A DNA stretch of 64,000 nucleotides from an uncultured Zhenpiania sp. (lineage in GTDB: Bacteria > Bacillota > Clostridia > Peptostreptococcales > Anaerovoracaceae), in contig CAZVBL010000004.1 of assembly GCA_964625475.1 (NCBI GenBank), positions 1,143 to 65,142 of the forward strand, written 5' to 3'. The translations under genes were made by a program, and so were the position numbers. The stretch's first letter is position 1; every line of letters starts with the position of its first letter. The notes beneath the pieces were generated by a model. That model did not search any database. It was not told where the DNA came from and was given only the letters and a program-made list of their open reading frames with translations. Shown piece after piece: positions 7,870-58,538 of this stretch.

Positions 7870-8226
7870 CATTCGGGCAGCCCGTAAGCCGGGTTCTGTA
7901 TTTGGCAATCATCTATCTCGACGTACTGTCACCAGCACGCTCCAGCGACTCACCTCTCGGGCAGCGACGGGCCGCCGCCTTTCATGCCCTTTCTTAGTCT
8001 TGCTCCGGATGGGGTTTACACGAGAAGCATGTTGCCATGCCTCCCGGTGAGCTCTTACCTCGCCATTTCAACCTTACCACGGCACGACCCGTTTCGGCGG
8101 TATGTTTCTGTTGCACTTTCCCTATAGTTACCTACGCCAGACGTTATCTGGCACCCTCGCCCTGTGGAGCCCGGACTTTCCTCATGCGCCCCAAAAGCGC
8201 ACGCAATTGCCTGGACTACCCGAATG
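7870..8226 (-). ncRNA. rnpB: RNase P RNA (class A)
   Basis: The minus strand contains GAGGAAAGTCCGGGCTCC, GAAAGTGCAACAGAAA, GGTAAGGTTGAAATGGCGAGGTAAGAGCTCACC and ACAGAACCCGGCTTA; the CATTCGGG / CCCGAATG ends pair. Confidence 0.97.
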
Positions 8227-8327
8227 CATGATTTTGATGTACCATGAACTTCCGCTGAACATACAATCAGAGTTCATGATTCAATGAACGCTTCCCCACG
8301 GCAACGCCGTATCAATCAATGCGTTCA

Positions 8328-32944: not shown

Positions 32945-33959
32945 AAAGAAAAGGAAAAAAAGCAGGACGCTGATGGCCATGCTGTTGATGGCCGCATTCC
33001 TAGGCGTTTTGACCGGCTGCGAAGCGGAGGGGCAGGAATACGCCATGGTCCTTGCCACGGCAAGCCCCGAAGATACGGTCACGGGCCTGTTTGCCAACGA
33101 GTTTGCCCAGCAGGTGGGACGCATTTCCAATGGAGAAATGGAAATCCAGGTCTACCACAACTCTCTCCTGGGCGGCGACACGGAGATCCTGGAATCCTGC
33201 CAGACCGGGGACATTCCCTTCGTGGTGCAGAACACTGCGCCGCAGGTCAGCTACATGCCCGCCCTGAGCCTCTTCGATCTGCCCATGGTTTTCGATGACC
33301 TGCAGCAGCTCCATCAGGTATTGGACGACGATGCATTCATGGAAAAGGTCAACGAAATTTACAAGGACGGGAATTTGCGCCTCCTGACGATGGGGGATCA
33401 GGGATTCCGGGTCATGTCCTCCAACCGAAACGTTCAATCCCTGGAAGATTTCGATGGCATCAAAATCCGAACCATGGAAAACAATTACCATATTCGCTTT
33501 TGGTCGGCACTCGGCGCAAACCCAACGCCCATGGCCTTTGCCGAGCTTTATGTGGGGCTGGAGCAAAACACGGTGGATGCCCAGGAAAATCCCTATGAAG
33601 TCATCGTTTCCAATCGGTTCTACGAGGTACAGGATTATGTGGTGGAAACCAACCACCTGCCCCATCTTTTGAGCCTGATTACCAACGACGAATTTTACGC
33701 CAACCTGACAAAGGAGGAACAGCAGGTCATCGATGAGGCTGCGGCAAACGCAGCGGAATATGCCAGGGAGCAGGCCGCCGTGCGTTCCAGCCAGCGCAAG
33801 AAAACCATCGCCGAAAGCGGAACCCAGATCGTTGAAATTTCCCCTGCGCTGCGAACGGAAATGCGGCAGGCATCCGCCCAGCTGTACGAACAGATTCGAG
33901 ACACGGTAAACGATGATGCGCTCTTCGACACCTATACCCAATTTATCGAAGCCCAGTGA
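32937..33959 (+). CDS. dctP: TRAP substrate-binding lipoprotein DctP
   Basis: Lipobox LTGC, GIKIRTMEN, LGANPTPM, VDAQENP. Confidence 0.93.
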   Translation: MNKKKRKKSRTLMAMLLMAAFLGVLTGCEAEGQEYAMVLATASPEDTVTGLFANEFAQQVGRISNGEMEIQVYHNSLLGGDTEILESCQTGDIPFVVQNTAPQVSYMPALSLFDLPMVFDDLQQLHQVLDDDAFMEKVNEIYKDGNLRLLTMGDQGFRVMSSNRNVQSLEDFDGIKIRTMENNYHIRFWSALGANPTPMAFAELYVGLEQNTVDAQENPYEVIVSNRFYEVQDYVVETNHLPHLLSLITNDEFYANLTKEEQQVIDEAAANAAEYAREQAAVRSSQRKKTIAESGTQIVEISPALRTEMRQASAQLYEQIRDTVNDDALFDTYTQFIEAQ

Positions 33960-34050
33960 TCGCCGCATGCACGGGGAAAATCCCCCGACCGCCAGAGCCT
34001 TGTATATTATGCCGATTTGCAGTGATCGCCGCATGCACGGGGAAAATCTC
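33954..34050 (+). repeat. Two exact 29-bp direct repeats with a 37-bp spacer (type I-E CRISPR-repeat-like)
   Basis: CAGTGATCGCCGCATGCACGGGGAAAATC at 33954-33982 and 34020-34048. Confidence 0.9.
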
Positions 34051-34068
34051 CCCTTGCGTTTTTTTCGG

Positions 34069-36352: not shown

Positions 36353-37555
36353 TTATTTTATTTTCACTCTCACCACCATGCTGTAAGCCCCGTAGACTTT
36401 CGCATTGTCCACTTTTTTGTATGCCCGGACTTTCACATAATAGGTTCCCTTTCTCTGTCGCTTTTTCAAGCTTTTTAGCTTTTTGAACGTTTTTTTCGTG
36501 GCGTTCTTTTTCTTGATGAGAGCCGTCCTTTTTCCTTTTTTGAAGTTTTTGTCCCTGGCGACCACCACTTGGTAGCCATCGGCCTTTGCGTTCTTTTTCC
36601 AACGCACGATCAGCTTCTTTTTGCTGGCCTGGACTTTCGCCTTCACCCCGGTGACTTTGCCAGGTTTGTCCGATTTGACGGCAGTGGTTTGCTTGCTCAC
36701 CGATACCGTCCCAGCATCAGACCAGAGGTCAGAGTCCAGGTTCAAATGCAAAGCGGGGCGCACGGTGCCTTCAAGAGTGCTAACGTAGGCTCCGTAGTAT
36801 TCAATACAGCCGTAGGTGCCCACACTCGTGGCATCGGTGCTAAAGTAACCCCGCGAGCGCAGCCACCACCAGCCGTTGCCTCTATAGCCAGGCTCGTTGG
36901 CTGTCCACGCTCCCTGATCCTTTGCGTAATCCGTATTCTCCGCACGCCTGGTCTCATCGTATTCATCGCGATCCGCTGAAAACCCGTAACTCGTCTCCAA
37001 TGCTTCCTCGATGGACAGCAGGTACACCTTGTCCTGGGTGTCGTCCCCACCCTCGGCATTGTAGTAATAGGGGTTGTCCGCATTTTCCACGTTGGTCGTG
37101 AATATTGCGCCCTGCTCGCTGGAAGTGAATGCCTTGTCGATGAAATTGTTCTTGGAATAATCGATGCCGGATTCGTTCTCACCGCTCCCATAGCCGTTCA
37201 GCCAGCTGCGCAGCGTGCAGGTCGCCCAGGTCACACTAGCAAAACTTGTGTTGTACTGTTGGCAGTCCAGGTTCTGATCCGCTAGCAGGAACGCATCGTT
37301 TCCGTCCACCGACAGCACCCGCCACTTGATCTTTTCCGTCTTGAAGCCCTCGTTCCCATCGGAGCTTTGCGGGTAGCTGCCGAAATACACGCAATCCCAG
37401 GTCGTCGTGCCGTCCGCCGTCCTGGGATTCTGCGGCGCAGCCGCCGCATTCGCCCCCTGCCAGTTCGTGGGCAGCAGCCACGCCGCCACGGTGAACGCAA
37501 GCGTAAAAGCAACGATCCTTGCGCCCCATCTTCTTCCCTTCCTATTCTCCGTCAT
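36353..37555 (-). CDS. Secreted DUF6273-like protein with a C-terminal FN3-like domain
   Basis: Signal peptide, YFGSYPQ, IKWRVL, TLRSWLN, DKVYLLSIEE, WWWLRS, VRPAL, and a Lys-rich FN3-like tail. Confidence 0.82.
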   Translation of the reverse strand: MTENRKGRRWGARIVAFTLAFTVAAWLLPTNWQGANAAAAPQNPRTADGTTTWDCVYFGSYPQSSDGNEGFKTEKIKWRVLSVDGNDAFLLADQNLDCQQYNTSFASVTWATCTLRSWLNGYGSGENESGIDYSKNNFIDKAFTSSEQGAIFTTNVENADNPYYYNAEGGDDTQDKVYLLSIEEALETSYGFSADRDEYDETRRAENTDYAKDQGAWTANEPGYRGNGWWWLRSRGYFSTDATSVGTYGCIEYYGAYVSTLEGTVRPALHLNLDSDLWSDAGTVSVSKQTTAVKSDKPGKVTGVKAKVQASKKKLIVRWKKNAKADGYQVVVARDKNFKKGKRTALIKKKNATKKTFKKLKSLKKRQRKGTYYVKVRAYKKVDNAKVYGAYSMVVRVKIK

Positions 37556-37693
37556 TCGTCCTCTCCTTTCCTTGAAACGAACCGTTCCATCGCATCGCCG
37601 ATGCCCGCCCGTTGGCGCAGGATCGCTTGTGGTCGTTTCAGGTTGCCCCTGCGCTCCTCGCCATACGCCAATCGTCAAGTCGTTCATACCTAT

Positions 37694-37723
37694 ATCGTAC
37701 CCCCCCCCTCAGTGTTTTGTCAA
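37694..37723 (-). promoter_or_regulatory. sigma-A promoter with a G9 tract in its spacer
   Basis: TTGACA-AAACACTGAGGGGGGGGG (18 bp)-TACGAT. Confidence 0.65.
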
Positions 37724-37807
37724 TTGCTTTTTTCGTTTTTCAACACAAAGAAATGCCGCATGCGCTTTGTTTCTTCTTCACGTCTCCCACCCTCATTGGG
37801 AATGGCG

Positions 37808-37956
37808 TCATCCCAACAGCTCCGCTATGTTGATAGTCCAGCCATCGTAAATCCCAACGGGGATGTCCTCATCGAAAGAGAATTGCCCAAAGTCTTCGTT
37901 TTCGTTCTCAAAGAAATAGGACAGGGTCGTTTCTTTTTAAGGTCTTTGTCCCTCAT
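37808..37956 (-). pseudogene. Fragment of a Uma2/DUF820 endonuclease C-terminus with a 1-nt frame break
   Basis: RBS GGAGG and ATG 37956; after a -1 shift at CTT AAA AAG it reads KETTLSYFFENENEDFGQFSFDEDIPVGIYDGWTINIAELLG*. Confidence 0.55.
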
Positions 37957-38270
37957 GGCTTCCTCCGTACAATAATGCTATTGTACCATGAATTTCCGCT
38001 GAAAACTCAATCGAAATTCGCGATTCAATGAAAATTGCGTTTTCGGACAGCCCCCCTTCGCAGTCGAGCTTGCCGCCTTGGAAACCCACTTTTTTTAGAA
38101 TCGGCAAGAAATGTTCACTTTTCTTTGGAAAATGTGGTAAAATATTGGTTGAAAACGGCGCATCAGGGCAACAGCGCACTTGCCGATGAGGGCATGTTCG
38201 ATACGCAAACCATTGGCGAACAATCCCCAAACAGCGCAACGCCAAGCGCGCCAGGCATCTGGAGGAAACC

Positions 38271-44280: not shown

Positions 44281-44378
44281 GAGCGCGCTCCAGGGAATCC
44301 CACAAGCCGCCGCACCCGCACGGCATCGGTCATTTCCCCGAAGGCGAGTGCGCTCCAGGGAATCCCACAAGCCGCCGC
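44281..44378. repeat. 33-bp direct repeat (32/33 identical), 65-bp period, abutting the sigF stop codon
   Basis: GAGYGCGCTCCAGGGAATCCCACAAGCCGCCGC at 44281-44313 and 44346-44378. Confidence 0.88.
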
Positions 44379-45118
44379 TACCGCACCATCTGCTCCCGCA
44401 TGCTTTGAAGCACTTTCTTTTCAATGCGGGACACCTGAACCTGGGAAATCCCGATTTTCCCTGCGATTTGCTGTTGCGTCATATCTTTGAAATACCGCAG
44501 GACGATGATCTGCCTTTCCCGCTCCGGCAGGGTTCCAATCATCATTTTCAAATCGATCAGGTTGACGTTCCTGTCCTCTTCTGAAACGTGGCTGACCTTC
44601 CTCTCCCGGTAGCCCTCGGAGATTTCGCCGTTGTCCAGGCTCTCCACGTTTGTCAGGGCTTCCGCCGCATCGAGGATTTCCAGTATCTTTTCAACTGGCT
44701 GCCCCATTTGCTCCGACAAGTAGCTGAGCTTTGGCCAGGAGCCGTGCCGGTTGTAATAGTCTTCCCTGATTTTTTTCAGGTTTCGCATGTCGGTTTTCAG
44801 CTGACGGCTCACCTTGATCCTGCCGTCATCGCGAATGTATCGCTTGATTTCCCCCAGAATCATGGGAACGGCATAGGTGGAAAACATCACGTTGAATTTG
44901 GTGTCAAACCGATCGATGGCTTTTAGCAGGCCCATGAAGCCGATCTGCAAAAGATCGTCCAGCTCGCAGCCGGATCCGACAAATTTCAAAGCCAGGTTCT
45001 TTACAAGTCCTGTGTTCTGCGCGACAATCAGCTCCCGCGCTTCCTGGTCGCCTTGCTGCGCCCGTTCAATCAGCGCATATGTATCTTCTTTTTTTGCCGG
45101 AACGTATTTAGAGGCCAT
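44378..45118 (-). CDS. sigF: Forespore sigma factor SigF
   Basis: DDLLQIG..GLLKAID, FSTYAVPMILGEIKR, SQVQVSRIEK; last gene of the spoIIA operon. Confidence 0.95.
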   Translation of the reverse strand: MASKYVPAKKEDTYALIERAQQGDQEARELIVAQNTGLVKNLALKFVGSGCELDDLLQIGFMGLLKAIDRFDTKFNVMFSTYAVPMILGEIKRYIRDDGRIKVSRQLKTDMRNLKKIREDYYNRHGSWPKLSYLSEQMGQPVEKILEILDAAEALTNVESLDNGEISEGYRERKVSHVSEEDRNVNLIDLKMMIGTLPERERQIIVLRYFKDMTQQQIAGKIGISQVQVSRIEKKVLQSMREQMVR

Positions 45119-57065: not shown

Positions 57066-58538
57066 TTATTTTAAGTAACGGGAAGCAGTCGCCCGATAAG
57101 CCGCGATTTTTTTTCCAACAGACTGGCTGCGCCGACTGAAAAAGCTGATGCTGACAAAAAATATAACATTGACCATAAGCCCCAGCACGGCGCAAGGGGC
57201 GGAAGTCATGGATGTAACGCCATCCAAAAAGAAAAATGTCAGAACACCGCTCCACAAACCTGCCAGGGCTGCCAAAGCCGTGGAACGTTTCCAAAAAAGA
57301 GCGCCGAGCACCGGCACGATCAATTGCATCGTTCCACCCATGGAAAGGACAGCGATATCAAAGACGCTCTGAGGGATCAGCAGGATCAGAAGATATGTGA
57401 CTCCAGAAACCACTACTACCGCCCATTTGGCAACAGACAGAAGATTCTTTTCCGTTATGTTGCGGTTTGCATACCGTTTGTGGATGTCGATTGTATAAAT
57501 GGCTACCAAAGCATGGATTTGGGAATTTGCTGTAGAAAGAATGGCCGCAACGATGCCGATGACTACGAAAGCGCACAAAAGGGGCGGCGCATAACGGCTC
57601 ATCATGCTGGCAATGAGCATGTCTCCCCCATCGTTGTTTTTGTTCAGAAGAATGCTGGCCGTCCCTGCGAAAAGGGTTCCAACGCAGACGATGGACGAAA
57701 GGCACAGGAAAAAAGGCAGCGTTTCAAAATGCCGCACCGATCCTGCGGCAAAATTTCGTATCCATATTTGAGGTCCCATAAAAGCGCCGACAGGCACGAC
57801 GAAAAACAAGGAAAGCCAAAGGGCAGTCCTGTTGAATCCAGCATCTTCCCCCCCCAATGTCACATGATCGATGCCATCGTCCACCACGCGGGCAAACATG
57901 GTTTCCATCCCGCCTGCCGTTTTCATGAGATAAAAGCCGCATCCCAGCAGCGTGATAATGATCAGCGCTCCGTAAAAGATATCTGTCAACGCAACCGCCC
58001 GCAGGCCGCCGGCCCACAAATAGATGACCAACACGGCAAAAAAAATCAATCCGCTGACCTGCCAGGAAATATAACCTCTTGTGACAGCTTGAAGGAGCAA
58101 AATCCCTCCCATCATCTGCGCAAGAAGATAGAACATGGTAAAGACAATGGTCACCACTGTCACTGACAAACTCAAAAGGCGGCTGCCGTAGATATCGTCA
58201 AAGAAATCGGCAGGAGTCACATATCCATAAGTTTTTCCATAAAACCAGATCCTCCTTCCAACAGCATAGAAGAGGACGGCAAAAAGAGCGTCCCAGCCGA
58301 TCGTTGTCATGTAAATGGGACCTGCTTCATAGAAATAGGCAATGCCTCCCATGAACGCAAATGCGCTCATCCATGTCGCAAAGACCGTAGCGTACATGGG
58401 AAAAAGTTTCAGTTTTCTCCCCTGCAGAAAAAAGTCCGATATGGTAGGCGCCGAATAGTTCCTGGCAATCTCTGCCAAAAGCAGCGGAATAAAAAGAAAC
58501 GTGCAAATCATCAGCATCACGATTGGATTTACGGTCAT
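57066..58538 (-). CDS. Sodium:solute symporter family protein
   Basis: DFFLQGR, MSAFAFMGG, GGLRAVALTD, AILSTANS; RBS AAGGAGG. Confidence 0.92.
   Translation of the reverse strand: MTVNPIVMLMICTFLFIPLLLAEIARNYSAPTISDFFLQGRKLKLFPMYATVFATWMSAFAFMGGIAYFYEAGPIYMTTIGWDALFAVLFYAVGRRIWFYGKTYGYVTPADFFDDIYGSRLLSLSVTVVTIVFTMFYLLAQMMGGILLLQAVTRGYISWQVSGLIFFAVLVIYLWAGGLRAVALTDIFYGALIIITLLGCGFYLMKTAGGMETMFARVVDDGIDHVTLGGEDAGFNRTALWLSLFFVVPVGAFMGPQIWIRNFAAGSVRHFETLPFFLCLSSIVCVGTLFAGTASILLNKNNDGGDMLIASMMSRYAPPLLCAFVVIGIVAAILSTANSQIHALVAIYTIDIHKRYANRNITEKNLLSVAKWAVVVVSGVTYLLILLIPQSVFDIAVLSMGGTMQLIVPVLGALFWKRSTALAALAGLWSGVLTFFFLDGVTSMTSAPCAVLGLMVNVIFFVSISFFSRRSQSVGKKIAAYRATASRYLK

Follow-up and report, generated by a model that had tools for sequence, protein, structure and literature searches.

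A tract of nine Gs fills the 3' half of the spacer of a putative sigma-70-type promoter upstream of a gene for a predicted secreted, lectin-like protein of the DUF6273 family, and two further genomes have tracts of the same class at the 5' end of a DUF6273 gene. We tentatively interpret the tract found in the window (the whole stretch of 64,000 nt analyzed here) as a promoter spacer tuned by slippage, that is, as a contingency switch of the porA type, and regard this interpretation as having somewhat less than an even chance of being correct. Contingency locus is in this sense a plausible designation for a feature that has been read from DNA.

Anatomy of the putative promoter and the G9 tract

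The putative promoter and the gene that it would serve comprise the following features, all of them on the minus strand:

37718..37723, minus strand: -35 hexamer TTGACA, a perfect consensus (direct reading and promoter scan)
37700..37717, minus strand: spacer of 18 nt, AAACACTGAGGGGGGGGG (direct reading and promoter scan)
37708-37700, minus strand: G9 tract (C9 on the plus strand), forming the 3' half of the spacer and abutting the -10 hexamer (direct reading)
37694..37699, minus strand: -10 hexamer TACGAT, which matches TATAAT at 4/6 positions and retains the key A2 and T6
37686..37688, minus strand: predicted transcription start site (TSS), about 7 nt past the -10 hexamer, placed by sigma-70 geometry
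37556..37685, minus strand: presumed 5' leader of about 130 nt, with the Shine-Dalgarno (SD) sequence AGGAG at 37567-37563
36353..37555, minus strand: gene coding for a protein of 400 aa, secreted or located at the surface (Pfam, alignment of 20 homologues, PDB profile matches, AF2 and Foldseek)

Across the promoter, the minus strand reads GCAATTGACAAAACACTGAGGGGGGGGGTACGATATAGGTATG. The sequence-only reading that preceded this work had described a TTGACA hexamer, an 18-bp spacer ending in nine Gs and a TACGAT hexamer, and both direct reading and an independent promoter scan (10/12 consensus matches, spacer of 18) recover these elements at the same coordinates, 139 nt upstream of the ATG at 37555; its further remark that the loss of one G would yield a 17-nt spacer is arithmetically correct, the spacer being counted as 18. 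The geometry of sigma-70 promoters, by which the TSS was placed, is established knowledge. Combinations of a perfect TTGACA with at least 4/6 of the -10 consensus number six in the window, versus 1.4 in shuffled sequence, so that most such matches in the window carry meaning. The TTGACA/TACGAT site is, in addition, the only one within 400 nt of the start codon, on the strand of the gene, to reach 8/12 as a sigma-70-like match.

No G/C run in the 64-kb window is longer than the G9 tract, and none besides it reaches nine; an iid model would predict about 0.5 such runs per 64 kb. Long runs of G or C are under-represented in the rest of the window: C7 (39241-39247), C8 and C9 (the tract itself, in plus-strand letters) occur once each, and G runs of seven or more are absent. 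The tract lies within the range of lengths associated with hypermutability (a G/C run of about 8 or more). The C8 run, at 57848-57855 (G8 on the coding strand), is read in frame, midway along the gene (57066-58538, minus strand) of a 490-aa sodium:solute symporter, and constitutes a useful internal control tract for slippage.

The gene, its start codon and its product

Several lines of evidence identify the ATG at 37555 as the true start of the gene. It is preceded by the AGGAG motif, the gene called by Logan on an identical contig begins with the same codon, and the alignment of 20 homologues runs from it onwards with their typical signal peptide included. These observations outweigh the ATG at 37687 (the start of a mechanical ORF of 444 aa) as the main start. 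This second ATG (37687-37685, minus strand) lies 6 nt past the -10 hexamer, at the predicted TSS and in frame with the ATG at 37555, and a leaderless isoform carrying an N-terminal extension of 44 aa may arise from it. Since translation starts at 37555, the promoter implies a leader of about 130 nt. This leader shows no significant structure (fold z-score of 0.67) and has no Rfam match at E<=1, and a riboswitch or ncRNA within it was rejected.

The secreted DUF6273/FN3 product that had been announced downstream of the promoter is borne out by a Pfam match, an FN3 fold and a signal-peptide-like helix. Residues 1-37 make up a signal peptide, with an N-terminal hydrophobic helix and an A-N-A | A site, and are followed by the C-type-lectin-like DUF6273 domain (residues ~45-290) and by a very basic FN3 domain (residues ~300-400; PDB profile matches). 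The domain belongs to PF19789 over the length of the model (E of 2.1e-24; 86.8 bits, the cutoff being 23.5; positions 3-171 of a profile of 172), and the profile of the family matches the N-terminal domain of an IgA protease (PDB 9qa6) at 2e-9. The AF2 model of the 400-aa protein has a pLDDT of 85, and Foldseek returned FN3 matches with TM values of 0.75-0.79. Taken together, the signal peptide, DUF6273 and FN3 mark the protein as a surface or interaction determinant, and its predicted character is that of a secreted, ligand-binding, lectin-like protein, probably retained at the wall through the basic FN3 domain. Among 5.8 billion proteins, no relative above 59% identity was found. DUF6273 adopts a C-type-lectin-like fold and is a target of diversity-generating retroelements (DGRs) in gut phages (PMC10743442; bioRxiv 10.1101/2024.10.15.618418), and it forms the N-terminal domain of the IgA protease of the gut bacterium Thomasclavelia (PMC12402451). 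Because of these two roles, DUF6273 is a surface module under diversifying selection and hence a suitable target for a switch.

Genomic context

The upstream neighbor of the DUF6273 gene is fabF, which is transcribed divergently, and the DUF6273 gene therefore needs a promoter of its own within the intergenic region. The features relevant to this region are:

37556..38258: intergenic region lacking a counterpart in congeners (blastn against congener loci, synteny tables)
37808-37936, minus strand: stop-bounded frame of 42 codons (KETTLSYFFENENEDFGQFSFDEDIPVGIYDGWTINIAELLG*), which on translation resembles the C-terminal remnant of a protein gene
37980..37988, minus strand: extended -10 element TGGTACAAT, a distal candidate that precedes the start codon by 425 nt and lies inside a palindrome and repeat D3 (Python scan)

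The FabF protein of the window has 79% identity with the Anaerovorax odorimutans enzyme, and its identity with the FabF of the mouse-gut MAG MGBC119074 and with that of 'Clostridiales bacterium strain 16' amounts to 86-89%. These values point to an Anaerovoracaceae-like member of the gut Clostridia as the host. Similarity to congener loci by blastn starts only at 38259, just before fabF, which in the congeners is preceded by crcB and DUF896, the DUF6273 gene being absent at that position. Both the DUF6273 gene and the adjoining intergenic DNA of 716 nt are peculiar to the window genome and belong to a rearranged, variable part of the chromosome. The same arrangement of crcB and DUF896 upstream of fabF led us to discard congener synteny as a source of an orthologous promoter, and the DNA upstream of the gene in the window shows no similarity to any of the loci fetched. 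The putative remnant at 37808-37936 has no Pfam match.

Several repeats were recorded in the window. A 51-nt direct repeat, 82% identical between its copies, occupies 8238-8288 and 37982-38032; the former copy adjoins the RNase P RNA gene (7870-8222, minus strand) and the latter lies in the DUF6273-fabF intergenic region, where a palindrome (GTACAATAATGCTATTGTAC) overlaps it, as do sites resembling promoters on either strand. A pair of 33-nt direct repeats, 97% identical and 33 nt apart, is found at 33954-33986 and 34020-34052 in an intergenic position beside the shikimate dehydrogenase gene, and a 41-nt pair similar in kind lies at 44281-44386.

Two other types of switch were considered for the locus and rejected. 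An inverton would present flanking inverted repeats of 15-30 nt together with a recombinase, and the inverted repeats detected here are weak and scattered, none of them closely bracketing 37694-37723. A DGR target would display a variable and a template repeat (VR/TR) that differ at adenines, with a reverse transcriptase nearby, and no repeat anywhere in the window involves 36353-37555, nor was a TR/VR pair or a reverse transcriptase (RT) found at the locus. The lack of a competing inverton or DGR at the locus further supports the slippage interpretation.

Recurrence of long tracts at DUF6273 homologues

The survey of homologues covered 80 loci encoding DUF6273 proteins (440 kb), in which all G/C runs were listed. 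Only two runs of at least eight were found in the 440 kb, and both are located at the 5' end of a DUF6273 gene (L078 and L018/L085); 52 kb of congeneric chromosome contained no G/C run of seven or more. Across about 500 kb of comparable DNA, tracts of the G9/G10 class occur nowhere besides DUF6273 5' ends. With the window left aside as the discovery case and 5' zones making up about 5-8% of the surveyed DNA, the probability that two of two tracts fall within such zones by chance is P ~0.002-0.007. This recurrence lends the contingency reading of the window tract indirect support. The remaining homologues (78/80) carry no long tract. Two homologues without a signal peptide, P0004 and P0012, were examined as potential frameshifted OFF forms and discarded, each being intact, with its own ribosome-binding site and free of simple sequence repeats (SSRs). 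The two tracts that emerged from the survey are:

2421-2448 of JAMPFJ010000042.1 (L078; same as L089 and L088): promoter TTGACT-16-TACAAT
1432-1441 of CAJTYS010000093.1, MAG MGBC119074 (L018/L085; also L084 and L086): G10 inside signal-peptide codons

The first of these reproduces the layout of the window, with a G9 in a promoter spacer, in unrelated DNA. The spacer of L078 is AACC-G9-TAG (16 nt), and 34 nt, SD sequence included, separate TACAAT from the ATG of a gene coding for a 505-aa DUF6273/Big_2 product; the genome has 38% GC and has been binned as 'Bacteroidales' or 'Clostridium sp.'. Relative to a 17-nt spacer, L078 is one G short and the window one G over. The tract is G9 in two MAGs and in one run, and in a 93%-identical orthologue of the gene (L087) the contig ends inside it.

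The second tract belongs to a congener of the window organism (MGBC119074, with a FabF 88% identical to that of the window) and lies in the coding region of a DUF6273/Big_2/FN3 gene, which the G10 puts out of frame: the ORF that starts at ATG-1345 ends after 44 codons, and a separate call covers the DUF6273 part, as a product of 491 aa (P0054). With G8 or G11 the gene would be back in frame, G7 and G10 being both one G short. A length of G10 is seen in three assemblies, a set biased by having been found via the shortened product; three other mouse-gut runs yielded contigs with G7. In two DNA runs and one metatranscriptome the contigs are interrupted at the tract, although such breaks at homopolymers can also stem from low coverage or sequencing error; the metatranscriptome contig shows that the gene is transcribed. 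Eight more contig runs and three raw-read runs yielded nothing at the tract, and no in-frame allele was observed among those found (G7 and G10). Both of these alleles being out of frame, the L085 data are also consistent with a decaying pseudogene.

A proposed slippage dial and its alternatives

The mechanism that we propose for the window can be outlined as follows. A sigma-A (sigma-70-type) promoter would drive a monocistronic gene for a secreted and probably wall-associated lectin-like protein, and a slippage-prone G9 would fill the 3' half of its spacer, so that the gain or loss of a single G at replication would move the two hexamers further apart or closer together. Transcription would be strongest with G8 (17 nt), intermediate with the assembled G9 (18 nt) and weak or off with G10 (19 nt), G7 corresponding to 16 nt. 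The tract would hence set expression in steps across spacers of 16 to 19 nt, and not operate as an on/off switch, and since single-G slips change the spacer, the cells of a clonal population would come to differ in the amount of surface protein that they carry. We infer that TTGACA/TACGAT is the active promoter, that slippage of the tract is frequent enough in this organism to be of use, and that expression tracks spacer length. Promoter anatomy, the rarity of such tracts, their recurrence and the apparent mutability of a homologue tract all lend indirect support to this scheme.

Against the dial counts, in the first place, that the tract itself was seen in one length only, in a single sample. 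Exact look-ups of four window proteins led to one sample only, SRR10165008, the Logan contig of which is 100% identical over 781 nt, C9 included, and runs unbroken through the tract, with no length variants seen; a pattern scan of JGI metagenomes with a variable gap returned two chance matches, neither of them with a tract. Long tracts in only 2/80 homologues likewise speak against a family-wide rule. The unbroken G9 contig and the scarcity of long tracts would also be expected if the promoter were real but static, with a neutral or hitch-hiked G9 that is stable on ecological time scales, and the gene constitutive or otherwise regulated. Promoters with 18-nt spacers are known to be functional, and the one described here may simply be constitutive; the available pair of assemblies agrees on G9, the L078 tract appears in run X25 as a single G9 contig at a depth of 59, and most members of the family manage without a long tract. 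A static promoter, however, leaves unexplained why long G/C runs should be absent elsewhere in about 500 kb of comparable DNA when the 5' ends of DUF6273 genes have three of them, and it sits poorly with the difference in length between samples of a tract in the same family (L085). Moreover, G/C runs of nine or more are slippage-prone in all bacteria studied. All in all, we consider a static promoter possible, if rather doubtful.

A second alternative would place the start of transcription at the distal extended -10 element (37980..37988) or at a promoter recognized by a different sigma factor, with TTGACA/TACGAT arising by chance and the G9 lying in a transcribed leader. The presence of the distal element counts against the dial, as does the leader of about 130 nt, compared to 34 nt in L078. 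Extended -10 motifs are common in Firmicutes, a strong SD sequence and a 43-codon ORF lie downstream of this one, and about half of the 10/12 promoter matches in the window are to be expected by chance (17 in the window versus 8 in shuffles). Set against this, perfect-35 matches are four times enriched over shuffles, TTGACA/TACGAT is the sole site near the gene, and the occurrence in L078 of the same G9-in-spacer layout with unrelated sequence makes it hard to credit the arrangement to chance twice, for which reasons a distal promoter is judged unlikely. That the G9 is a consensus error of assembly or sequencing, the true tract being shorter or of uncertain length, is highly improbable, for although Illumina accuracy falls in long G runs and the window and L001 were possibly assembled from the same reads, two different assemblers produced an identical C9 with unique flanks, and analogous tracts appear in independent projects.

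Discussion

Phase variation through SSRs is textbook biology in mucosal pathogens but, to our knowledge, has hardly been documented in the dominant Firmicutes of the gut, which are obligate anaerobes. For Lachnospiraceae and related gut Clostridia, our search of the full-text literature retrieved no account of phase variation by slipped-strand events, and a 2025 review cites, for Clostridia, invertons only. Switching through SSRs in promoter spacers is itself classical, and it seems plausible that the taxon and the gene family reported here are new for the mechanism. The broader proposition that poly-G switches for DUF6273 lectin-like proteins have arisen in anaerobic gut Clostridia (Anaerovoracaceae and Lachnospiraceae-like) with at least three independent origins is more speculative and we would not yet expect it to hold; the corresponding division into two transcriptional cases (the window and L078) and a translational one (L085) is put forward with the same diffidence. 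Should this broader proposition hold, it would reveal an SSR 'phasome' in a group known only for invertons and DGRs, with SSR switches acting on the very fold that gut phages diversify by means of DGRs. A poly-G dial on a secreted lectin-like protein would suggest that IgA, phage or glycan niches exert a fluctuating selection on this surface molecule, and would provide a cheap signature for metagenomes, in the form of long G/C runs at the 5' ends of genes. Truncated or 'pseudogene' calls in MAGs, like that of P0054, would then be alternative phase states.

Among known systems, the closest counterpart is porA, in which one-nucleotide slips change the length of the spacer and lead to graded expression, with related poly-C spacers in opc and fetA. 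The porA promoter of Neisseria meningitidis, which van der Ende et al. reportedly described in 1995, harbors a poly-G between its -35 and -10 elements. As in porA, the window presents a homopolymeric G tract (9-11 nt in porA) between the hexamers of a putative sigma-70 promoter, upstream of a gene for a predicted surface protein. Unlike the host of the window, an uncultured, strictly anaerobic member of the gut Clostridia, N. meningitidis is a Gram-negative pathogen with a known large phasome and measured switching rates. A comparable logic applies to the poly-C promoters of fim2 and fim3 in Bordetella pertussis and to the poly-A promoter spacers of vlp in Mycoplasma hyorhinis, where variable surface proteins are transcribed at a level that depends on the length of a homopolymer in the promoter core. 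The fim tracts, in contrast to that of the window, space the binding site of the activator BvgA from the -10 element, the vlp tract is a poly-A, and the proteins involved lie outside the DUF6273 family.

In gut anaerobes, phase-variable transcription of surface factors has been described for the invertons of Clostridioides difficile and Bacteroides (PMC11868660), which depend on a recombinase and on inverted repeats at either side; convincing repeats of this kind are absent around the window promoter. Contingency genes with a poly-G in the coding region, as known from Campylobacter, Haemophilus and Neisseria (PMC11868660; PMC3315296), are matched by the congener gene L085, the G10 of which is out of frame, one slip away from the frame and variable in length between samples. 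Unlike those genes, L085 has shown no in-frame allele, and the feature belongs to a relative of the window organism and not to the window itself. The 'tentaclins', which are DGR-diversified gut-phage proteins with a DUF6273 or C-type-lectin fold (PMC10743442), share with the window protein the family of the ligand-binding domain, often followed by Ig or FN3 domains, and, on the slippage reading, the theme of programmed variation. The DGRs of tentaclins, however, vary the sequence of the protein through a reverse transcriptase, whereas the promoter tract of the window would vary its amount instead.
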